Shown in pieces: positions 10,015 through 48,521 of a stretch of 64,000 nt of DNA. Location: the NCBI GenBank assembly GCA_004295055.1, contig SHNJ01000031.1, positions 170,898-234,897 on the forward strand. The letters are read 5' to 3'. The DNA comes from Alphaproteobacteria bacterium. GTDB taxonomy: Bacteria; Pseudomonadota; Alphaproteobacteria; SHNJ01. Under the pieces are notes generated by a model. It saw only the letters and a program-made list of their open reading frames with translations, did not search any database and was not told the origin of the DNA. A program made the translations under genes and the position numbers. Positions within the stretch are counted from its first letter, which is position 1. Every line of letters begins with the position of its first letter.

Positions 10015-10057
10015 TAAAAATCGGCGTCGCCGACGAGATAGGGGCGTTTGTCATCCT
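10015..10057. repeat. 43-bp direct repeat, copy 1 (duplicate of the 3' tail of ORF 11541-12260)
   Basis: TAAAAATCGGCGTCGCCGACGAGATAGGGGCGTTTGTCATCCT, identical to 11554-11596. Confidence 0.95.
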
Positions 10058-10162: not shown

Positions 10163-11461
10163 TTATTTACCAACTTTAGTTTTTGGTCCTTTGCCGCCGG
10201 CCAAGCCGAAGGTAAGAATTTTTACCAGATCGAATCTAACTCTATTTCCAGAGGCTGGGGCCGCAACCGGAGTCGATCCATCGGCAGCAGTTGCGCCGTT
10301 TCCTGCCGCTGGTGCCGCCGTTTTCGCAGCAGCAGCCAATGCTGCTTTTTCAGCTTTCAGTTTTCTTTCTTGCGCTTTTTGTCCAATCGATTGCCAGGCT
10401 AAACCCAGTTGAAACTCGCTAAATACTTCACCCGGTACTTTGCCTGATCCGCCAAATTGCTTGATAAGGCCTTCTGCGGCAGTCTTGGCGATTGTAGCCA
10501 CAGTTTCCAGCAAATCTGTCGTTGGTTTAAGGCGCTTTTGCAATGCTTCTTCGGCTTGTTCCGCAGACGTCAATTCGCTTCTTTTGGCTTCTAGGTTTGC
10601 GGCGGCTTGGTCGCCTTTTGCTTTGGCGGCAAGAGTAACGGCGTCCTTGGCGCGATCAACCGTATCTTTTGCTTGGCGCAAAGGTCCGTATACGCTCGCC
10701 TCGGCATTCTGCATAATTCCTAAAATGCCGTTGCTGACGGTGATAATTGCCGCTGGGTCGTCTTTATACAGATGCGGTTTTCCATCTTGTCTTGGCAAAC
10801 GAAGCAAAGCCACCAAGGCATGAATTCCGGTCCAGTTATTCAATTCATTTTTTAATAGAATCGTTCTTAACTCGCCCATTCTTTTGCGAATTCTATCGGG
10901 GGCGGTTGCGCCTTCTTTTGGCGTAGTTCCTTTTTTAATCACTTCGGCTTTGGCACGCCAATCTGTAACGATGGCAGCGGCAAGCTCTCCTGCCACCTCA
11001 GCGCCTTTTAATTCTCTCACTTGTCTTACCAAATTTGGAGCAATAAGAAATGCAACCATTGCAGAAAGCGCTTTTTTGCCGGCATCATTCAATGGGGCAG
11101 GGGCAGTCAGCGTTGCCGGTGTTTCAGGAGTAGTTGCTTCAGGAGCCGCTGTTTCAGTGGTAGCCGATTCAGGGGTAGCTGCTTCCGCAGTAGCAGCAGT
11201 ATCGGCTTGTGCCACAGGTTCTGTTTGTGCGGCAGGTTCCGGCGATGGTACCGGTTCCGGAGGAATGGCGACGGCTTCGGTCCCAATTTGATCTGCGGTA
11301 CGGAACACATTATCAAACACTACCCAGCGTTCGATAGGACTTAATCGCATGGCTTCCACAACCGAGCGAATAATTGCTTCATCCGAAATTTTGGTGGCAA
11401 TATCCAATTCGCCGGCCATATTGGTAATCAAATTTAGTTCAGCCAAAGTTTTTAACGCCAT
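10163..11461 (-). CDS. Hypothetical protein (orphan, Ala/Thr/Pro-rich linkers, helical core)
   Basis: 432-aa ORF, strong SD GAGGAGGA, own terminator; no family recognised. Confidence 0.85.
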   Translation of the reverse strand: MALKTLAELNLITNMAGELDIATKISDEAIIRSVVEAMRLSPIERWVVFDNVFRTADQIGTEAVAIPPEPVPSPEPAAQTEPVAQADTAATAEAATPESATTETAAPEATTPETPATLTAPAPLNDAGKKALSAMVAFLIAPNLVRQVRELKGAEVAGELAAAIVTDWRAKAEVIKKGTTPKEGATAPDRIRKRMGELRTILLKNELNNWTGIHALVALLRLPRQDGKPHLYKDDPAAIITVSNGILGIMQNAEASVYGPLRQAKDTVDRAKDAVTLAAKAKGDQAAANLEAKRSELTSAEQAEEALQKRLKPTTDLLETVATIAKTAAEGLIKQFGGSGKVPGEVFSEFQLGLAWQSIGQKAQERKLKAEKAALAAAAKTAAPAAGNGATAADGSTPVAAPASGNRVRFDLVKILTFGLAGGKGPKTKVGK

Positions 11462-11540: not shown

Positions 11541-12260
11541 TTAGACTAGGGGGTAAAAATCGGCGTCGCCGACGAGATAGGGGCGTTTGTCATCCTCTAA
11601 CTCATTCCACAATAATCCATAATGTTTTGGCAGGCTCCAGGCTAGGTAATTCATCACATTCTGGAAATCTTGCGGCGCGGCAAAATCGCGCTGTTTTAAC
11701 GAAAATACCAGGTTTTGCCGTGGGCTCATATCCCGGATATAGACCGACGCGACGCCCGGCGTTTGCACGCCCAACTGATTCAGACGGCCGGCAATGTTCT
11801 TCTTTACATAATGGGGTAGGTAATGATCGCTGGGACAGCCGATCATTATCCGCGCGCTGTTGGGCACTTTGAACAGACTTAATTTTTGATCGGCGTCGGT
11901 GCCGATTTGCTCGGCATCTCCGGCACCGCGCGGTTTAAAGAAAAATCCATATTCATGCAGCGACCAGACATCGCCGTAATGCAGAACATAATGGCTTTGG
12001 CCGAAATCGAATACCACGCCGCATCCAATTTCCACCAAATCCGGCAGAATCGATTTGAAATCGGCATCTGGCATCGCGGCCGGGCTGCGAATTGGCAGAT
12101 ATTGCAATCCATCTGGCCCGGTAATCAATTCCGGCTGCAATGGATTTGGTTTTTGCACGGGCAAGCCAAGGATGGCGGATTCAAATTGTTTATACCAATC
12201 GGCATCGCGCGCTGACGTATCGGCGCGTAAAAGACTGGCAATTTGATCCAATATGCTCAT
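11541..12260 (-). CDS. Conserved hypothetical protein
   Basis: 239 aa; GPDGLQYL, YVLHYGDVWSLHEYGFF, IMIGCPSDHYLPHYV and LAWSLPKHYGL resemble an uncharacterised proteobacterial family; no name assignable. Confidence 0.75.
   Translation of the reverse strand: MSILDQIASLLRADTSARDADWYKQFESAILGLPVQKPNPLQPELITGPDGLQYLPIRSPAAMPDADFKSILPDLVEIGCGVVFDFGQSHYVLHYGDVWSLHEYGFFFKPRGAGDAEQIGTDADQKLSLFKVPNSARIMIGCPSDHYLPHYVKKNIAGRLNQLGVQTPGVASVYIRDMSPRQNLVFSLKQRDFAAPQDFQNVMNYLAWSLPKHYGLLWNELEDDKRPYLVGDADFYPLV
11554..11596. repeat. 43-bp direct repeat, copy 2 (inside the coding 3' end, DDKRPYLVGDADF)
   Basis: Identical to 10015-10057. Confidence 0.95.
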
Positions 12261-37823: not shown

Positions 37824-38465
37824 ATGGCTCTGGCAAATTTAGAAACATATGTAACCGGAAAACTAAGCAACCATATCAATGCCAGCAAAATTGCCTATGG
37901 CGAATTGACGTTGGATGTAAAACGCGAATCGATTATCGATGTGCTGACATTTTTGCGCGATGATGCGGAATGTCAGTTCCAAATGTTGTGCGATTTATGC
38001 GGCGCCGATTTTCCTGGCCGCGCCGACCGGTTTGAAGTGATTTATAATTTATTGTCGGTTACCAAAAACGAACGTATCCGCGTGCGCCTTCAGACCGATG
38101 AAACAACACCCGTGCCATCGATTGTTGGCGTATACAGCGCCGCTGGATGGTTTGAACGCGAAGCGTGGGATTTATACGGTATTTTATTTGCGGGCAATCC
38201 CGATCTGCGCCGCTTGTTGACCGATTACGGTTTCGAAGGCCATCCGTTGCGCAAGGATTTCCCACTAACCGGTTTTGTGGAGGTGCGTTATGACACCGAA
38301 CAAAAACGCGTTGTTTATGAACCGGTAAAACTGGCGCAAGATTTCCGCAATTTCGATTATTTATCGCCATGGGAAGGGCTTGATAAATTGCTGCCTGGCG
38401 ATGAAAAGGCCGGCATCGTGCATCAACCGATTGCTAGCAATGGCAAAAGAAAGGTGGGTTCATAA
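37824..38465 (+). CDS. nuoC: NADH-quinone oxidoreductase subunit C
   Basis: [48 protein letters not shown]. Confidence 0.98.
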
Positions 38466-38899
38466 TGTTTGAATTTTTCACCCGGTTTTTTAAACCCAGA
38501 CGCCCAAAGCCTGTAACGGTACAGCTAGAAACATTTGTTGATCACCGACCGGGATTGAGTCACGGAGAATTGGCAACGATTGCGGCACAATTGGAACCAT
38601 TAAGATTGCAGCATAAGATTCCTGATATTTGTGGCATGGCCCCCGGTTATCGCAACCAAAGACCCTCTGTTGTATTATCCATTCCAAGAAATTTAGCTAG
38701 ACCGGATGACATAAGGGCTTTTCGTCTTGCCGCGCAAGATGCCATAAAGCATACAGGTCTGGCGGTATTTGTGGAGTACGACACAGTTGGCACGACCGAA
38801 GCTATTAATAGAAAAGCGGTTATAACGTCGGTAACATTGCCGCAGGTAGTAACCGCCCTCGTTGCTTCTGGAAACACCGGAAAGGTTAGGGTCGCATAA
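38465..38899 (+). CDS. Hypothetical protein inserted in the nuo operon (ORF-a)
   Basis: 144 aa; TAATG overlaps at both ends; no family recognised. Confidence 0.75.
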   Translation: MFEFFTRFFKPRRPKPVTVQLETFVDHRPGLSHGELATIAAQLEPLRLQHKIPDICGMAPGYRNQRPSVVLSIPRNLARPDDIRAFRLAAQDAIKHTGLAVFVEYDTVGTTEAINRKAVITSVTLPQVVTALVASGNTGKVRVA

Positions 38900-39237
38900 T
38901 GTCTATTCATATTGGCACAGAACAAAGAATTGCTGCCGCGATTATGGAACGGAAAGGTCAGCCAGGAACTATTTTTGCCAATGTTCAATTTGCGGAAGGC
39001 ATCGCGTTGAGTTGCAAAGGTTTTGTAAAAGTAGATATTGATGAAGGATTGGGGCTTGGAGCAGAACAAGTTGTACAGATGGCTCGTGACATAGGCGTTG
39101 CTATAAAGGAAGCTTTTTTAGGCGACTCTGCAATTGAAGGAATTTGTAACAGTGGCAACATAATAGTAGTGCCGCAAGAGTCAGCCGCAGCCACTATCGC
39201 CCGGGCACAAAGATTTAGTATGGAGCGTGCCGCCTAA
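38899..39237 (+). CDS. Hypothetical protein inserted in the nuo operon (ORF-b)
   Basis: 112 aa; TAATG overlaps at both ends; no family recognised. Confidence 0.75.
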
Positions 39238-40454
39238 TGACCGTTCATATCGAAACAAAAACCAAAACCAATCCGGGCGAGGCGCCGAGTTCTGAAAATT
39301 TCACCATGAATTTCGGCCCGCAACATCCGGCCGCGCACGGCGTATTGCGTTTGGTGCTCGAAATGGATGGCGAGGTGATTGAACGCGCCGATCCGCATAT
39401 CGGTTTGCTGCACCGCGGTACCGAAAAACTGATCGAATATAAAACCTATTTACAGGTCGTACCGTATTTCGACCGTTTGGATTATGTCGCGCCGATGAAT
39501 CAGGAACACGCCTTTGCATTGGCGGTTGAAAAATTGCTGGGTATCACGCCGCCAAAACGCGCGCAATATATCCGCGTGCTGTATTCCGAAATTGGCCGGA
39601 TCTTGAACCATTTGTTGAATATCACTACGTTTGCCATCGATGTTGGCGCGATGACGCCGTTATTGTGGGCGTTCGAAGAACGCGAAACCTTGATGGAATT
39701 TTATGAACGCGTTTCCGGCGCGCGCCTGCATGCGGCGTATTTCCGTCCAGGCGGCGTGCATCAGGATTTACCGGCCGGATTGGTCGAAGACATGTATCAA
39801 TTCATCGATCATTTTCCGAAAATTATCGACGATATTGAAGGTCTTTTGACCAACAACCGCATTTTCAAACAGCGCACCGTGGATATTGGCGTTATCACCG
39901 CCAAACAGGCGTTGGATTGGGGCCTGTCCGGTCCGATGCTGCGCGGATCGAACACGCCGTGGGATTTGCGTAAATCGCAACCATACGATGTCTATGCCGA
40001 TATGGCATTCGATATTCCAACCGGTAAAACCGGCGATTGCTATGCGCGGTATTTGGTGCGAATCGAAGAAATGCGCCAAAGCTTGCGCATTATGAAACAG
40101 TGTTTAGATAAAATGCCGGGCGGTCCGATCAAAGTGAACGATCATAAAATCGCCCCGCCAACGCGCGGCGATATGAAACGCAGCATGGAAGCGTTGATTC
40201 ACCATTTCAAATTATATACCGAGGGCTATCATGTTCCCGCCGGTGAAACTTATTCCGTCGTCGAAGCGCCAAAGGGCGAGTTCGGCGTTTATTTAATTTC
40301 CGATGGCACTAATCGTCCATATCGTTGCAAAATTCGCGCGCCGGGATTCGCATTCCTGCAGGCGCTGGATTTTATGTCGCGTGGGCATATGTTGGCCGAC
40401 GTAGTAGCGATTATCGGTTCCATGGATATCGTGTTTGGGGAGATTGATCGATGA
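39237..40454 (+). CDS. nuoD: NADH-quinone oxidoreductase subunit D
   Basis: [46 protein letters not shown]. Confidence 0.99.
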
Positions 40455-40927
40455 GTGCGGAATTGGTGCTCAAACACGAAAGAGCGATCATGGACCTGTT
40501 CAAGCTTGGCTTGTTTGGTATGGACCGGGAAAATTTTAATGAGGCTAAATTGCCCGGGGTGCTGGATGCGGGATTCTATCAGGATTGTCGTGTGCTGGCG
40601 CTGTATTTGCATGCTTATAATTATATGGCCCCTCCTGGTGGGACGAAGGCACTTTTGGGCGGTACTGCTTGCGAACTGGCAAGCTTGAATGCAGCGGAGT
40701 TTGAACGGATGGTTATTGAATGCGGCGACCGGTTTTTACGCGAACGTGTGCCAGGCGATGTACGCCTGTTCATAAGGGCCATGGCCAACGATCTGTTCTT
40801 TCACGATCTGGCCAAATATTTTGTGATGTATAATCCACGTCTTGCCGAAATCCACAATGATATTGGGGCCAACAGCGCCGGTAATGGCGTGGCCCAGGCG
40901 GTGATGATCGAGGGGAATGTACGATGA
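40451..40927 (+). CDS. Hypothetical protein inserted in the nuo operon (ORF-c)
   Basis: 158 aa; ATGA overlaps at both ends; no family recognised. Confidence 0.75.
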
Positions 40928-41523
40928 AAACAGCTGTTGCGCAAAAATCCGCGCCGTTCGAATTTACGCCGGAAAACAAAAAACTGGCGGAATATCATGT
41001 CGCCAAATACCCGAAAGGCCGCCAGCAATCGGCCGTGATGCCCCTCCTGGATATCGCGCAACGGCAATCGGGCGGCTGGCTGCCGAAAGAAGCTATGGAT
41101 TACGTCGCAAACTATTTGGGAATGCCATTGATTCGCGTATACGAAGTCGCGAGTTTCTATACGATGTACAATTTGAATCCGGTTGGCAAAAATCTGGTTC
41201 AGGTTTGCACCACAACGCCGTGCTGGTTGCGCGGATCGGATGAAATCGTCGGCGCGTGCAAGAAAAAATTGGGCATCGGCATGGGCGAAACCACATCGGA
41301 TGGCAAATTCACATTGGTCGAGGTTGAATGTTTGGGCGCGTGCGTGAATGCGCCAATGGTGCAAATCAACGACGATTTTTACGAAGATCTGGATTCCTCC
41401 AGCATGGGTAAAATTCTGGACGATTTATCGGCCGGGCGTAAACCGGTTGTCGGTACGCAAATTGGCCGGCAAAATTCCGCGCCAATCGGCGGCGCTAAAA
41501 CTTTGACAGAGGTCAAAAAATAA
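40924..41523 (+). CDS. nuoE: NADH-quinone oxidoreductase subunit E
   Basis: [37 protein letters not shown]. Confidence 0.98.
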
Positions 41524-41524
41524 A

Positions 41525-42811
41525 ATGCTTTCGGACAAAGACAGAATTTTTACAAATCTATATGGCCAAGACGATTGGAAACTGGCTGGCGCGAGGCGCC
41601 GCGGCGTTTGGTCGGGCACCAAGGATTTGATTTTAAAAGGCCGCGATTGGATCGTCGAAGAAGTGAAGAAATCGGGGCTGCGCGGCCGTGGCGGCGCGGG
41701 TTTTCCAACGGGCATGAAATGGTCGTTTATGCCAAAAGAATCTCCGGATGGCCGCCCCAGTTATTTGGTGGTCAATGCCGATGAATCCGAACCAGGCACC
41801 TGCAAAGATCGCGACATTTTGCGGTTCGATCCGCACCGTTTGATCGAAGGCTGTTTGCTCGCCTCGGTCGGGATGGGCGTGAAGACTTGTTATATTTACA
41901 TTCGCGGCGAATTTTATAATGAAGCCAAGCATTTACAGGCCGCTATTGACGAGGCGTATGAGGCCGGCTTGATTGGCAGAAACGCCTGTGGTTCGGGTTA
42001 TGATTTCGACCTTTATATGCATCGCGGCGCGGGCGCCTATATTTGCGGCGAAGAAACCGCGCAATTGGAAAGCTTGGAAGGTAAAAAGGGCCAGCCGCGA
42101 TTGAAACCGCCATTTCCGGCGGGTGTGGGATTATATGGCTGCCCGACCACGGTCAATAACGTCGAAACCATCGCGGTCACTGGCGAAATTTTACGCCGCA
42201 GCGGCGAATGGTTTGCAAAATTGGGCAAACCAAAAAACGAAGGCACCAAGGTGTTTTGCATTTCCGGCCACGTCAACATGCCGTGCAATGTCGAAGAAGA
42301 AATGGGTATCCCATTAAAAGAATTGATTGAAAAACACGCGGGCGGCGTGCGCGGCGGATGGGACAATTTAATGGCCATTATTCCGGGCGGATCGTCGGTG
42401 CCGATGTTGCCGAAATCGATTTGCGATACCGTGTTGATGGATTTCGATTCACTGCGCGGCGTGCAATCGGGGCTTGGCACGGCGGCGGTGATTGTGATGG
42501 ATAAATCCACCGATATTGTAAAGGCGATCGCGCGCCTGTCGAAATTTTACAAACACGAATCTTGCGGCCAATGCACACCATGCCGCGAAGGCACTGGCTG
42601 GATGTGGCGGGTTATGGAACGCCTGGTCAAGGGCGATGCGGAAATCCGCGAAATCGATATGTTATTGGATATCACCAAACAAGTCGAAGGCCATACGATT
42701 TGCGCCCTTGGCGATGCGGCAGCCTGGCCAATTCAAGGTTTAATGCGCCATTTCCGGCATGAAGTCGAACGGCGCATCAATGAACGTCATATGCCCATAG
42801 CGGCGGAGTAA
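41525..42811 (+). CDS. nuoF: NADH-quinone oxidoreductase subunit F
   Basis: [55 protein letters not shown]. Confidence 0.99.
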
Positions 42812-42814
42812 ATT

Positions 42815-44854
42815 ATGCCAAAAATAACCATCGACGGAAAAGAAATCGAAGTCCCAGCCGGAAGAACAGTATTCCAGGCTTGCCGCGACGCTGGCGTCGA
42901 AGTGCCGCATTTTTGTTTCCATGAACGGCTTGCCATTGCTGGCAATTGCCGCATGTGCCTTGTTGAAATGGAAAAAGCGCCAAAGCCGATTGCGTCTTGC
43001 GCGATGCCGGTGGCCGATGGGATGGTGATCAAAACATCGACGCCGCAAGTGATCAAGGCGCGTCAAGGCGTGATGGAATTTTTACTGCTGAACCACCCGC
43101 TGGATTGTCCTATTTGCGATCAGGGCGGTGAATGCGATTTGCAGGATCAGGCCATGGCCTATGGATATGATCGCGGCCGGACGCAGGAAATGCGCCGCGC
43201 GGTTAAGGACAAATATATGGGTCCGCTGGTGGCGACCGAAATGACCCGTTGTATCCATTGTACGCGCTGCATTCGTTTTGTGGATGAGGTTGCGGGCGTG
43301 CCTGAACTTGGCGGCATCGGCCGGGGCGAAGGCATGGAAGTCACGACTTATGTTGAAAAGGCGCTGACATCCGAAATGTCCGGCAATATTATCGATCTTT
43401 GCCCGGTCGGCGCGTTGACATCGAAACCTTATGCCTTTACCGCGCGCCCCTGGGAATTGAAAAAAACCGAATCCATAGACGTGTTAGATGGATGCGGATC
43501 GGCGATCCGTGTGGATGCTCGCGGGGCCGAAGTTATGCGTATTATGCCGCGCCTGAATGAATCGATTAACGAAGAATGGCTGGCGGACAAGCCACGCTTT
43601 GCCTATGACGGATTGAAACGCCAACGTTTGGATCGGCCTTATGTCCGTAAGGGCGGAAAATTACAGCCAGTATCTTGGCAAGAGGCGCTGAGTGTTGTCG
43701 CACAAAAATTGAAATCCACATCGCCGGATAAAATCGGCGCGATTGCCGGTGATTTGGTGGATGTCGAATCCACCTATGCATTGAAAAAATTATTATCGTC
43801 GCTGGGCGTGACCAGCATGGATTGCCGCCAAGATGGCGCAAAGATCGATCCATCGCAACGCGCGGGATATATTTTTAACACCACTATTGCCGGTATCGAA
43901 CAAGCCGATGCATGTTTGATCGTCGGCGCGGATTTGCGCAAGGAAGCCCCGTTGGTAATGTCGCGCATCCGCAAACGCTATTTGCAGACCGGCATGCCGG
44001 TAAGCCTGATCGGCCCGCGCGTCGATTTGACAGTGAAATTCGAACACATCAGCCAAGACGCCAATATTATCGAACAAATTGCGGCTGGCCGTCATCCATA
44101 CGCCGAAAAATTGAAATCGGCAAAAAAACCGATGATTATTGTCGGTATGGGCGCATTGCAACGCGCCGATGGCGCGGCGATTTTGGCCGAATGCCGCAAA
44201 TTGGCGGAATCTTGCAATATGATTCAGCCGGATTGGAATGGATTTAACGTCTTGCACTTAACGGGTGGCCGCGTGGGGGCGCTCGATGTCGGGTTTGTCC
44301 CGCAAAAAGGCGGATTCGATGTCGCTGGCATGCTGAATGGTAAACTCGAAGTCGTTTATTTGCTGAACGCCGATGAAATCGACACCAAAAAACTGGGCCA
44401 GGCTTTTGTAATTTACCAAGGCCATCATGGCGATGTGGGCGCCAGCCGCGCGGACGTGATTCTGCCTGGCGCAGCCTATACCGAAAAAGACGCGATTTAT
44501 GTCAATACCGAGGGCCGTCCGCAACAAGCCTTTGCCGCGATCCTGCCGCCAGGCGAGGCGAAAGACGATTGGAAAATCGTCCGCGCCTTGTCGGAACATG
44601 TGGGCAAAACCTTGCCGTTCAATACACTGGATGAGTTGCGCCTGCAATTAGGCAAGGATCATCCGATATTCGTGACCATCGGGGATGTAACCAGGGCATC
44701 GTGGGGAAATTTCGGCATGGCCGGAACGATTGCCAACACCCCATTTATATTGCCGATGCCGAATTATTATATGACCGATGTCATTTCGCGCAATTCGGTG
44801 ACCATGGCCAAATGCGCCGAAGAATTCGTGCAACAGAAAAAGGTGGCGGCATGA
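42815..44854 (+). CDS. nuoG: NADH-quinone oxidoreductase subunit G
   Basis: [43 protein letters not shown]. Confidence 0.99.
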
Positions 44855-45867: not shown

Positions 45868-45927
45868 GGGTTTGGGTTTTGGGTTTAGGGAAATTTTCCA
45901 AAACCCAAAACCCAATACCCAAAACCC
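45867..45927. repeat. Inverted G-tract/C-tract heptamer repeat (telomere-like)
   Basis: GGGGTTTGGGTTTTGGGTTTAGGG-AAATTTT-CCAAAACCCAAAACCCAATACCCAAAACCC in the nuoH-nuoI spacer. Confidence 0.85.
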
Positions 45928-45940
45928 TTAGGAGTTATGT

Positions 45941-46423
45941 ATGTTAAACCGCACCGCACGAAGCTTTCTTTTGACCGAGATATTGCGCGGCCTTGCCCTG
46001 ACCTTTAAATATATGTTCAAGCCGAAATACACCATCAATTACCCATTCGAAAAAGGCCCGATTTCGCCCCGGTTTCGCGGCGAACATGCGCAGCGCCGCT
46101 ATGCCAATGGTGAGGAACGCTGTATCGCCTGTAAATTATGCGAAGCGGTTTGCCCCGCGCAAGCCATCACCATCGAGGCCGAGCCGCGCGACGACGGATC
46201 CCGCCGCACCACGCGGTACGATATCGACATGACCAAATGTATTTATTGCGGCATGTGCCAGGAATCTTGCCCGGTAGATGCGATTGTCGAAGGCCCAAAT
46301 TTCGAATTTGCCACCGAAACCCGCGAAGAGCTGTTTTATAACAAAGAAAAATTGTTGGCCAATGGCGACCGCTGGGAAGCTGAAATCGCGCAAAATCTGC
46401 AACTCGACGCGCCATACCGGTAA
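45941..46423 (+). CDS. nuoI: NADH-quinone oxidoreductase subunit I
   Basis: [33 protein letters not shown]. Confidence 0.99.
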
Positions 46424-46428
46424 GATTA

Positions 46429-47265
46429 TTAACGGCCCAACCATCTTTGTTTTAAATCGGCGATCCTTGCCGCGCCTATGGTGATAATATTCCGCAAAAA
46501 AGGCGTTGCACCAAATGTTGGCGTCCGGGCCGGGGCGGGATGCAAGCGCGATTTTGGCGGGGGATCTTCGAAAAGAGATTCATTGTCGCCAATTACAGCC
46601 AAATCTCCCGGGCTGTCTTCCGGCACAGGCAAGTCCATGATACCGTAATTGCCGCTTTGATCGTCCTGGGTGGCATCATTGCATAAATCCAACAGTTCAA
46701 ATGCACCGAAATCATGTCCGGCGTCTTCCGAAGATTGACTGGGATCGGTGGGCATTGTTTCCACAAGCCCACACTCATCGTCCGGCATTTCAAATATGCA
46801 CAACCCAGTTGCTTCTTTTTCATCGGGGGGCTGGGATTGCAATTTTTCCAAATATTCATGCGCGTATGTTTTTAAACCGGAACGGGTGTCTTCAGGCAAA
46901 TTTCCACCAGCCCGATCGATCCAGGCGCAAATTTGATCTGTATCCGTGCCGTTCAAATCCGGGTTATTGAGCGTATATTGTTCAATAGCGGCCTGGCGCA
47001 CGGCGGCAGAAGAATTTCCAGACAACGCCCGATTTAAAATCGGCAACCGGTCCGATTCCCAATCCGGCATGCAATCCACCGGTGCGTCTAACAAAAAGAA
47101 AAGCGCAATATTATCAGGAACTGTGCGGCCGGTATTGCTGGAAAAAATCCGGGCCTGCTGCCACAATATGTCCAGCGCTTCGCCGCGATCCATGCCATGT
47201 CTATTTGCGGTGCTTGCGCAAATTCGCAATTCGTCTTCGGTCATCAGGCGGATAGTTGTTACCAT
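46429..47265 (-). CDS. Hypothetical acidic protein (orphan)
   Basis: 278 aa; Asp/Glu/Pro-rich C-terminal half; convergent with nuoI. Confidence 0.75.
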   Translation of the reverse strand: MVTTIRLMTEDELRICASTANRHGMDRGEALDILWQQARIFSSNTGRTVPDNIALFFLLDAPVDCMPDWESDRLPILNRALSGNSSAAVRQAAIEQYTLNNPDLNGTDTDQICAWIDRAGGNLPEDTRSGLKTYAHEYLEKLQSQPPDEKEATGLCIFEMPDDECGLVETMPTDPSQSSEDAGHDFGAFELLDLCNDATQDDQSGNYGIMDLPVPEDSPGDLAVIGDNESLFEDPPPKSRLHPAPARTPTFGATPFLRNIITIGAARIADLKQRWLGR

Positions 47266-47298
47266 TATTCACCAGTCTTTTCTTGATCGTTCCATAAT

Positions 47299-47745
47299 TT
47301 ACGGCACAATTTGCACCTGAAGAGCCCGTCTTAACATCTCAGGGGATATCGTTAAAGCCTTTGCTCCAGGTTGCACATAACGCATCAGGTCAAACAAACG
47401 TGAAAGCGCCAGATGCAATCCCACGTCCTGAACGAATTTTGTTGTTATTTCTGTATGTGGAAAAGGCTCTGGTTGTTCATGGTGGGTACAAGGTTCTCCT
47501 CGTTTAGGATATTGAACCGCCAACCAAGCGCTTTGTACGGTATTGGGTTCAGGCCATTTTTTTGCTGCCGGGTCTGGACGAGTTTCAAACTCTGCCAGCA
47601 TGCCTAATAATTCTTGTTCGGGGTATGTGTTGGCAAGATCGTATATCGTTGCAAAGCATCTATGGGCCTGCGTGATTAGATAATTCTGCATCGGGGTTAT
47701 ACTTCCCGGCAAGCCATATTCATTTACGCGCATCGTCACCACCAA
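47299..47745 (-). CDS. Hypothetical protein (orphan)
   Basis: 148-aa ORF on the same strand as its neighbours; start uncertain. Confidence 0.6.
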   Translation of the reverse strand: MVVTMRVNEYGLPGSITPMQNYLITQAHRCFATIYDLANTYPEQELLGMLAEFETRPDPAAKKWPEPNTVQSAWLAVQYPKRGEPCTHHEQPEPFPHTEITTKFVQDVGLHLALSRLFDLMRYVQPGAKALTISPEMLRRALQVQIVP

Positions 47746-47967
47746 ATTTTTTGGATTGAGTCAGGTCAGAAAATATTTTGGGAATAGGGGTGTATGGCGC
47801 TAGGCGCCAATAATAATCGCGTTAATAGCAATAATGCTGCATGCGGCGGAAATACGCGCTTTTAATAAGGAAGAAGCAATGGTTAATGCTTGCAGCATGA
47901 ATTGATTAAAACATATGTTTTTGCGATTGTCAATAAACCTGACGCAAAATCCCGGATGCTATTAAAA

Positions 47968-48468
47968 CTAACGGATTTTCCCGGGTAATAGAACCCCTTT
48001 TAATGCAAGACCAATTAAAAATCCGGGAATAAAGGAAAGAATCACCCGTTGTCTTTGAAGCCCTGCTTGTATTGGGAATTTCCGCCGCGCATTTTCATGT
48101 ACATTGTCTTTTATGTAGACCAGCGCATCGCTAATTTCAGTGCTGGTTAATTTAGGCCAGTTATAAATTTCGTTGGCTGGTTTGGATAAGGCGCCCACAA
48201 TGCCGCCCATTTTGCCGTTCCAATCGCTGCTGCCATATATTGGTTGGGCCAGCGTATATCCAAATCCGCTGTCGCCAGATATACGGATGCTATCTGCCAT
48301 GGAGTGTAAGTTATCGGTCGCAGGTTGGAATACTTTGGTAACTTCGGTCACTTCGTTGCGGTAGCCCGCAGTTCCGACGTGAATGCCTGTAAAGGCAAGC
48401 GCGGAAACTATTCCGCCGGAAAGTATAACGGCGCTCCAACGCAAAATTCTGTTTTTAGGCAATTTCAT
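47968..48468 (-). CDS. Hypothetical membrane protein (two terminal hydrophobic segments)
   Basis: 166 aa; WSAVILSGGIVSALAFTGI and VILSFIPGFLIGLALKGV; SD GAGGTG. Confidence 0.7.
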   Translation of the reverse strand: MKLPKNRILRWSAVILSGGIVSALAFTGIHVGTAGYRNEVTEVTKVFQPATDNLHSMADSIRISGDSGFGYTLAQPIYGSSDWNGKMGGIVGALSKPANEIYNWPKLTSTEISDALVYIKDNVHENARRKFPIQAGLQRQRVILSFIPGFLIGLALKGVLLPGKIR

Positions 48469-48521
48469 AACCGCACCTCTGTTATGTTTCTTTTACAAAA
48501 ACAGAATGGGTTTGTCCAGAA

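Follow-up and report, generated by a model that had tools for sequence, protein, structure and literature searches.

Probable insertion of lineage-specific passenger genes with target duplication at stop/start overlaps of an alphaproteobacterial nuo operon

Introduction

How can a gene settle inside a tightly coupled operon of essential genes without breaking it, and does a gene found there belong to the complex that the operon encodes? These questions are raised by a stretch of 64,000 nucleotides from an alphaproteobacterium of the lineage SHNJ01 (assembly GCA_004295055.1, contig SHNJ01000031.1, positions 170,898 to 234,897; the whole stretch is referred to as the window), in which three open reading frames (ORFs), here called ORFa, ORFb, and ORFc, lie between the complex I genes nuoC, nuoD, and nuoE. 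We know of no earlier explanation for the entry of foreign genes into a tightly coupled essential operon without damage. Since the 1990s, the nqo/nuo clusters of alphaproteobacteria such as Paracoccus denitrificans and Rhodobacter capsulatus have been known to hold interspersed unidentified reading frames (URFs). In the open literature, we found no paper on nuo URFs or on coupling-preserving insertions of the kind described here.

A first-pass annotation of the window had offered two readings of the three ORFs: accessory or assembly factors of complex I made in step with their neighbours, or cassettes that target stop/start overlaps. Comparison with a sister species, together with an analysis of the junctions, leads us to regard ORFa, ORFb, and ORFc as probable lineage-specific passenger ("lodger") genes that were inserted with target duplication into the nuo operon and are not components of complex I.

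Results

Junction duplications

All five junctions around the three ORFs are stop/start overlaps of one or four bases (TAATG, TAATG, TAATG, ATGA, and ATGA; Table 1), and the coordinates, junction strings, and overlaps that had been read in the first-pass annotation are all present in the sequence. The 3' end of nuoC reads ...AAAGGTGGGTTCATAATG and that of ORFa ...AAAGGTTAGGGTCGCATAATG; ORFb ends in GCCTAATG, continuing into nuoD. Likewise, nuoD ends in GGGGAGATTGATCGATGA and ORFc in GAGGGGAATGTACGATGA, which continues into nuoE. The last 20 nt of nuoC hold the tail GKRKVGS with its stop plus the Shine-Dalgarno (SD)-like sequence AAAGGTGG. A public gene call places the start of ORFc at Met14 (position 40490; 145 aa), and the overlap of ORFc with the nuoD stop is therefore likely, not certain.

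In order to compare the junctions, we aligned the sequences at all start codons of the operon (positions -24 to +27) in all pairs, 55 in the window and 78 in L084, a locus of the sister species introduced below. By gapped local score, the pairs that flank the inserts rank first (ORFa/ORFb versus ORFb/nuoD), second (nuoC/ORFa versus ORFa/ORFb), and fifth (nuoD/ORFc versus ORFc/nuoE) among the 55 pairs. Without gaps, ORFa/ORFb versus ORFb/nuoD and nuoD/ORFc versus ORFc/nuoE are the top two on both sides of the ATG. Upstream of the ATG, junctions J4 and J5 are identical at 11 of 18 positions (ungapped rank 1 of 55), or at 13 of 18 with ATGA counted. The junction copies thus exceed chance, as the earlier description of duplicated junction motifs had implied.

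The copies are not confined to the tails. The top direct-repeat family of the region (D1) returned by the repeat finder is a 30-nt repeat shared by the heads of ORFb and nuoD, and the N-terminus of ORFb (MSIHIGT) resembles that of NuoD (MTVHIET), so that the copy continues past the start codon. ORFb' and NuoD of the sister species both begin with MTIHIET, and the two heads agree at 20 of 22 nt (TAATGACCATYCATATYGAAAC; TAATGACCATCCATATTGAAAC versus TAATGACCATTCATATCGAAAC). These shared heads had been overlooked in the first-pass annotation, which had seen the shared tails. At the protein level, the tail of NuoC (RKVGS) is similar to that of ORFa (GKVRVA), and the tail of NuoD (GEIDR) to that of ORFc (IEGNVR); since the duplicated tail is kept in the reading frame of the upstream gene, the lodger proteins end like their neighbours. 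Repeat lengths are ~13 nt for a GNAT gene of the sister species, ~20 nt for ORFa, ~25 nt for ORFc, ~30 nt for ORFb, and 43 bp for a separate locus of the window.

Filled and empty sites in a sister species

A NuoC scan of species-representative genomes yielded 80 loci, a single one of which is close to the window: L003, from an uncultured alphaproteobacterium (contig CAZYJI010000002.1). Its identity to the window is 91% for NuoC, 97% for NuoD, 96% for NuoE (97% by tblastn), and 96% for NuoF; the remaining loci are at most 72% identical, nearly all of them 59-68%. A metagenome scan returned the same organism again (L083 and L084; L083 is 99.94% identical to L003) and nothing further. The operon of this sister species has the order nuoA, nuoB, nuoC, ORFa' (148 aa), ORFb' (115 aa), nuoD, nuoE, nuoF, x1, x2, nuoG, GNAT, nuoH, nuoI.

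ORFc is missing in L003 and L084, where nuoD and nuoE overlap directly at GGGGAGATTGATCGATGAACAGTGC (GATCGATGAACAG), which represents the empty site. In the window, GGGGAGATTGATCGATGAACAGTGC flanks ORFc on both sides, with an intact left copy and a decayed right copy (GAGGGGAATGTACGATGAAAACAGCTG). Beside the insert, the N-terminus of nuoE is 3 residues shorter than that of the sister-species nuoE. The cleanest insertion case is the GNAT gene of L084. There, nuoG and the GNAT gene have identical last 13 nt (AAGGTGGCGGCAT), the nuoG tail being perfectly duplicated, and the C-termini KKVAA and FKVAA, respectively; the empty nuoG/nuoH site is supplied by the window (AAGGTGGCGGCATGATGAAC). The comparison of empty junctions in relatives, which had been proposed in the first-pass annotation, hence provided an empty nuoD/nuoE boundary in L003 and L084 and no empty nuoC/nuoD boundary in a close relative.

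Selection, composition, and age of ORFa and ORFb

ORFa is basic, with an isoelectric point (pI) of 10.2 (10.5 in the sister species), and ORFb is acidic, with a pI of 5.1 (6.1); no transmembrane segments were found in ORFa, ORFb, or ORFc. The N-terminal 11 residues of ORFa are kept in the sister species, and the C-terminal MER codons of ORFb, which contain the GGAG preceding nuoD, are conserved. Global amino acid identity is 46% between ORFa and ORFa' (41% by tblastn) and 50% between ORFb and ORFb'. The ratios of nonsynonymous to synonymous substitution rates (dN/dS, NG86 method) are 0.26 and 0.18, respectively, and are approximate, since synonymous sites are saturated. A protein identity of about 50% combined with random four-fold degenerate sites and a conserved length can, however, only reflect purifying selection on both proteins, and ORFa and ORFb are real genes under such selection. 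Their dN is 0.42-0.48 compared to 0.02-0.065 in the Nuo neighbours, which corresponds to ~10 times faster protein evolution.

Both genes differ from their surroundings in composition. The GC content at third codon positions (GC3) is 0.40 in ORFa and 0.34 in ORFb, compared to 0.544 ± 0.05 in 50 long ORFs of the window, and the orthologues in L084 are also low (0.39 for ORFa' and 0.37 for ORFb'). In agreement with the rare codons noted for both genes in the first-pass annotation, Arg is encoded by AGA in 42% of cases (3% in nuo) and Ile by ATA in 32% (4% in nuo). At conserved residues, 15 of 45 four-fold degenerate sites of ORFa and ORFb together are identical between the window and the sister species, which is about random, compared to 852 of 1381 (62%; Fisher P = 2.6e-4) for 16 genes of the neighbourhood; in hyp168, a neighbour that itself evolves fast (dN 0.29), four-fold identity is still 62%. 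Nucleotide identity to the sister species falls from ~0.87 to ~0.55 within ~30 nt of the ORFa start and is 0.92 again at the nuoD start.

The saturation of four-fold sites in ORFa and ORFb and not in the rest of the genome implies that the alleles diverged before the genomes split or were replaced horizontally. Either the pair was acquired twice, or it was replaced by recombination through the conserved nuoC and nuoD flanks, or divergent alleles were long retained. Overall, ORFa and ORFb look foreign, or show old allelic divergence.

The AlphaFold2 (AF2) model of ORFa (predicted local distance difference test score, pLDDT, 56) is disordered at the ends, whereas residues 30-108 form an alpha-beta-beta-alpha-beta core of moderate confidence. 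A Foldseek search with this model against PDB gave no significant match, the best hits (E=0.086, TM-score ~0.3) being generic alpha/beta sandwiches. ORFa and ORFb were also considered as paralogues of each other, which was rejected (hhalign probability 0.4%).

ORFc

ORFc is acidic and predicted to be all-helical; its AF2 model is likewise all-helical, at low confidence (pLDDT 44). It had no match except itself in 5.8 billion clustered proteins, or when 1.84 billion representatives were scanned in full with HMMER. Its annotated frame is the best of six, with +0.20 bits per codon (native genes 0.40-0.53), and the GC contents at the three codon positions (0.61/0.37/0.55) are coding-like, with a host-like GC3. 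ORFc is a recent, species-specific ORFan.

Homology searches and presence in sequencing runs

None of the three ORFs had a match in Pfam or NCBIfam at E<=1 beyond noise, or in PHROG or PADLOC, and no restriction-modification or defence family was found. No homologue of any of them was present among the 5.8 billion clustered proteins, and neither viral contigs (all three ORFs) nor PDB sequences gave a match. Searches by tblastn of plasmids (ORFa and ORFb) and phages (ORFa) were negative as well. ORFa and ORFb have no homology to toxin or antitoxin families (Pfam, PADLOC, PHROGs, PDB) and were not present at 78 further nuo loci of alphaproteobacteria. Just as none of the three had been recognised at first reading, they belong to no known family, and the only relatives found are ORFa' and ORFb' of the sister species. 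They are members of no complex I family and are not co-conserved with Nuo subunits. An origin of the inserts as diverged duplicates of nearby nuo sequence was also considered and rejected: in blastn and tblastx comparisons with the window, only the junctions match.

In a wastewater RNA-seq run, contigs of 100% identity lie inside ORFa (38492-38642), inside ORFb (39035-39185), and across ORFc/nuoE (40758-40954). ORFc was found in runs of five studies, and a contig from an independent study crosses the nuoD/ORFc junction; nuoC-ORFa-ORFb-nuoD is spanned by identical contigs in two runs. The samples in which the clade occurs are activated sludge, biofilms, and rivers. No ORFc-free form of the window species was seen among the runs, whose coverage is too thin to exclude one.

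Similar inserts elsewhere

Gene flux of this kind is not confined to nuo. An exact 43-bp direct repeat at window positions 10015-10057 and 11554-11596 is a copy of the tail of a minus-strand gene (11541-12260), and the two repeats bracket a captured gene for a 432-aa Ala/Pro-rich protein (10163-11461, GC3 0.39) with its own terminator-like hairpin. A hexapeptide-repeat gene and a PNP/UDP-family gene, which are directly adjacent in the window (51720/51721), are separated in L084 by insert y, whose tail (AAAGACAATTATAATG) is a decayed likeness of the tail of the upstream gene in the window (AAAGATTATTTATAAATG). Over the 21 kb common to the window and L084, differences of one or two genes occur upstream of nuoA, after nuoI, and at the hexapeptide/PNP boundary.

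In other alphaproteobacteria, the cargo at nuoC/nuoD and nuoD/nuoE is unrelated and comprises GFA, FlK-type thioesterase, 23S-rRNA-IVS four-helix-bundle, GNAT, and ParA-like ATPase genes as well as small membrane proteins. Several of the cargo genes listed for these loci in Table 1 have tight or overlapping stop/start joins.

Features of the operon and its 3' end

Coordinates are collected in Table 1. In both species, nuoI is the last gene of the operon and is followed by genes on the opposite strand (window 46423-48500; L084 15958-16470). Since nuoJ to nuoN lie outside the window, the genes for complex I seem to be distributed over at least two loci. Two minus-strand ORFs after nuoI in the window (46429-47265 and 47299-47745) are not shared by the sister species. 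A 60-nt hairpin with GGGTTT-type repeats (GGGTTTGGGTTTTGGGTTTAGGG ... CCAAAACCCAAAACCCAATACCCAAAACCC; 45868-45926) lies between the stop of nuoH and the SD sequence of nuoI; it occurs once in the window and has a folding energy of -37 kcal/mol (z = -4.5). It is missing in the sister species, where the nuoH-nuoI gap is only 10 nt.

Table 1. Positions of the nuo genes, inserts, and junctions in the window and of cargo genes in related loci
Feature	Locus	Position	Strand	Remarks
nuoA	window	ends 37265	+	nuoA-I operon
nuoB	window	ends 37813	+	nuoA-I operon
nuoC	window	37824-38465	+	213 aa; Pfam PF00329 Complex1_30kDa, E=1.6e-46; 91% identical to sister-species NuoC
ORFa	window	38465-38899	+	144 aa; between nuoC and ORFb
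ORFb	window	38899-39237	+	112 aa; between ORFa and nuoD
nuoD	window	39237-40454	+	405 aa; Pfam PF00346 Complex1_49kDa, E=6e-127; 97% identical to sister species
ORFc	window	40451-40927	+	158 aa; between nuoD and nuoE
nuoE	window	40924-41523	+	199 aa; Pfam PF01257 2Fe-2S_thioredx
nuoF	window	41525-42811	+	nuoA-I operon
nuoG	window	42815-44854	+	nuoA-I operon
nuoH	window	ends 45867	+	nuoA-I operon
nuoI	window	45941-46423	+	nuoA-I operon
Junction J1	window	38447-38467	+	nuoC tail and TAATG overlap (GAAAGGTGGGTTCATAATG); gapped match to J2 is rank 2 of 55 junction pairs
Junction J2	window	38877-38922	+	nuoC-tail copy (GAAAGGTTAGGGTCGCATAATG), then nuoD-head copy (ATGTCTATTCATATTGGCACAGAA); repeat family D1; ranks 1 and 2 of 55
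Junction J3	window	39231-39260	+	ORFb stop and nuoD start (CGCCTAATGACCGTTCATATCGAAACAAAA); repeat partner of J2
Junction J4	window	40434-40461	+	nuoD tail, ATGA overlap, and first bases of ancestral nuoE head (TTTGGGGAGATTGATCGATGAGTGC)
Junction J5	window	40907-40937	+	decayed nuoD-tail copy, ATGA, and nuoE head (GAGGGGAATGTACGATGAAAACAGCTG)
x1 and x2	L084	11290-11956		nuoF/nuoG junction; x1, 161 aa, signal-peptide-like start; x2, 59 aa, one hydrophobic helix, membrane protein
GNAT acetyltransferase	L084	14021-14455		144 aa; PF00583; nuoG/nuoH junction
Insert y	L084	19745-20221		158-aa ORFan, GC3 0.30; between hexapeptide-repeat gene and PNP/UDP-family gene
23S-rRNA-IVS type	L026	6623-7012		nuoC/nuoD or nuoD/nuoE
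GNAT	L080	1970-2464		nuoC/nuoD or nuoD/nuoE
GFA	L068	6598-7032		nuoC/nuoD or nuoD/nuoE
FlK-type thioesterase	L066	7027-7482		nuoC/nuoD or nuoD/nuoE
ParA-like ATPase	L007	9201-10442		nuoC/nuoD or nuoD/nuoE

Discussion

The above results can be brought together in a model for the entry of the lodger genes. Each insert would have entered nuoA-I without a mobility gene, duplicating 13-30 nt around a stop/start overlap. Through this duplication, the upstream nuo gene would retain its last codons and its stop, and the inserted ORF would end in an in-frame copy of the upstream tail, finishing with similar residues at an identical overlapping stop. For the downstream nuo gene, the SD-like motif and start context would be preserved, and ORFb would in addition start with a copy of the first seven codons of nuoD. 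As the duplication covers the stop/start overlap, the newcomer would take over tail, stop, and SD sequence from its neighbours and in some cases also a head, and the presumed coupling chain would be left intact. Since the inserts have no space for a promoter or terminator, ORFa, ORFb, and ORFc must be co-transcribed with nuo. Translation is most likely coupled, with ribosomes being passed from nuoC to ORFa, ORFb, nuoD, ORFc, and finally nuoE. The placement at overlaps is probably best explained by survivorship, as only insertions that rebuild the junction would persist in an essential operon.

Several observations weigh against this model. The clade consists of two genomes in the collections, so that insertion and deletion are not formally separable, and the direction of gain or loss was derived from distant outgroups. 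At nuoC/nuoD, the repeats are present, and an empty site is absent from the close genomes. In L084, the tail of ORFa' is unlike that of nuoC (rank 57 of 78), and the nuoF/x1 and x2/nuoG junctions are not similar (rank 64 of 78); in the window, the ORFc repeat is decayed (13 of 18). The synonymous excess of ORFa and ORFb is derived from 45 four-fold sites, a small sample, and the RNA contigs are unstranded and come from a metatranscriptome that possibly holds DNA. Moreover, part of the junction similarity could stem from convergence on the SD sequence and the overlap. Such convergence cannot, however, account for the copied nuoD head or for the 13-nt GNAT repeat.

ORFa, ORFb, and ORFc share the properties by which nuo URFs are known: they are non-nuo genes on the same strand, lie between complex I genes, vary between lineages, and are unrelated to the core subunits. 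The 80 loci examined hold a URF-like variety at nuoC/nuoD and nuoD/nuoE as well, with the GFA, FlK-like, IVS-protein, GNAT, and ParA-like cargo listed above. In contrast to the URFs, the three ORFs belong to no known URF family, and the sister comparison adds dated filled and empty sites together with junction duplications that preserve coupling.

The closest described process is insertion with long target duplication, which was seen for restriction-modification genes by comparing related genomes and involves no mobility genes (Furuta, Abe and Kobayashi 2010, PMC2853133). In that process, the repeats are of variable length and often lie across a translation start or stop, the target gene survives, and one case is located inside an operon-like cluster (PMC2853133); for an earlier description, the same paper cites Nobusato et al. 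2000, Gene 259:99. The resemblance extends to a foreign gene between direct repeats of variable length, a single copy at the related empty site, and the lack of a transposase or integrase. As in the described cases, empty sites exist for ORFc (in L003 and L084) and for the GNAT gene (in the window, with a 13/13 nt repeat), and no mobility gene is located in or beside an insert. In contrast to the described cases, for which repeats of >30 bp are the criterion (PMC2853133), the repeats of the nuo inserts measure 13-30 nt, and only the 10015/11554 locus reaches 43 bp. Furthermore, the cargo consists of small promoterless ORFans and a GNAT gene and not of restriction-modification systems, and the inserts are embedded in overlaps, the new ORF borrowing the tail, stop, SD sequence, and sometimes the head of a neighbour. 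Short repeats, promoterless ORFan cargo, and duplication across a stop/start overlap are what is new here.

A more far-reaching version of the passenger-gene reading is doubtful but deserves mention. It holds that a recombinase-free or trans-acting process captures promoterless ORFan cassettes onto stop/start boundaries, duplicating 13-43 nt, and that ORFa and ORFb form an old, horizontally exchanged basic/acidic addiction or immunity module that lives in the nuoC/nuoD boundary and exploits the expression and indispensability of complex I. Like type II toxin-antitoxin or addiction modules, ORFa and ORFb are small, overlapping, and co-evolving, one basic and one acidic, with foreign composition and alleles that predate the host split. 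In the main passenger-gene reading, too, this likeness suggests that the two-gene module may be a conflict-, addiction- or immunity-type pair. Unlike type II toxin-antitoxin modules, they are not homologous to a toxin-antitoxin or defence family (Pfam, PADLOC) and have no promoter or operator of their own.

Active, site-specific capture is unlikely. In this scenario, a recombinase encoded elsewhere would insert and excise promoterless single-gene circles at stop/start overlaps, like an integron without attC. Such a system would fit at least five separate sites in the two sister genomes, all at exact gene boundaries with target-derived repeats, as well as ORFa and ORFb alleles that are more divergent than the genome, as cassette exchange predicts. 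With integron cassettes, the inserts share promoterless, mostly single-gene, often ORFan cargo under an upstream host promoter. However, the repeats vary in length (13, ~20, ~30, and 43 nt), have only ATGA or TAATG in common, and are derived from the target. The ORFs are followed by no imperfect inverted repeat of the attC kind, attI and IntI are missing from the vicinity, and the inserts lack a common core site. A repeat scan revealed neither attC-like or terminal inverted repeats nor a shared end motif at the window inserts. No recombinase-type gene is present in these inserts or in the three nuo inserts of L084 or near the operon in either genome, and no transposase or integrase gene flanks the operon. 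Given the lack of a recombinase and of a shared motif or attC in the inserts, and given tail-duplicating inserts outside the operon, survival selection is a simpler explanation than targeting. The cassette idea of the first-pass annotation therefore stands with respect to hitch-hiking and junction duplication and fails where it invoked active targeting of overlaps, since no recombinase is found in the inserts or near the operon and the repeats are target-derived and differ from each other. Active targeting of stop/start overlaps is unproven.

It is also quite improbable that at least ORFc is non-functional as a protein, the inserted stretch being held open only as a bridging frame that hands ribosomes from nuoD to nuoE. 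Selection for coupling alone would be expected to keep just such a frame, with its ends exactly at the stop overlap and the start overlap, and ORFc has no homologue and an AF2 model of very low confidence. By simple arithmetic, however, 158 stop-free codons are improbable by chance ((61/64)^158, ~5e-4). The GC pattern and the six-frame codon score of ORFc resemble those of real genes, and protein-level constraint is clear for ORFa and ORFb, whose architecture is the same.

The first alternative of the first-pass annotation is very improbable. Under it, the three ORFs would encode accessory subunits or assembly factors of the Q-module that are confined to the lineage and made in step with NuoC, NuoD, and NuoE through translational coupling. 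It would account for the exact placement between Q-module genes with unbroken overlaps, for an expression necessarily bound to nuo, and for the retention of ORFa and ORFb under purifying selection in both known species of the clade. Yet ORFc is missing in a sister whose NuoD and NuoE are 96-97% identical, and ORFa and ORFb evolve about ten times faster than their Nuo neighbours. None of the three ORFs matches NDUFS4, NDUFS6, NDUFA12, or another Pfam family at E<=1, and no homologues were found beyond the sister species in the genomes searched, including other complex I operons. In addition, the cargo varies: at other nuo junctions, the sister species has a GNAT gene and genes for a signal-peptide protein and a tiny membrane protein, and the genes lodged at the same junctions in other alphaproteobacteria are unrelated.

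Finally, although the genome derives from metagenomes (biofilm and activated sludge), chimeric joins of its assembly can hardly be entertained as the source of the inserts, because identical contigs span nuoC-ORFa-ORFb-nuoD in two runs, the nuoD/ORFc and ORFc/nuoE junctions are spanned in several runs, an independent study included, and the same ORFa/ORFb arrangement occurs in two separate sister-species assemblies.

The passenger-gene reading has consequences beyond this locus. The sister genomes provide clean before-and-after pairs, in which the boundary duplicated with the insert shows how a gene can enter without breaking a coupled essential operon. Insertion with long target duplication is thereby extended from restriction-modification genes to promoterless ORFan cargo in operons. 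For annotation, the locus is a warning that location inside a nuo operon does not make a gene a complex I factor, and ORFa and ORFb deserve attention as a module of two proteins that evolve fast and whose alleles are unusually old. If the capture process outlined above were true, new genes would be born already wired into the transcription and translation of their host.

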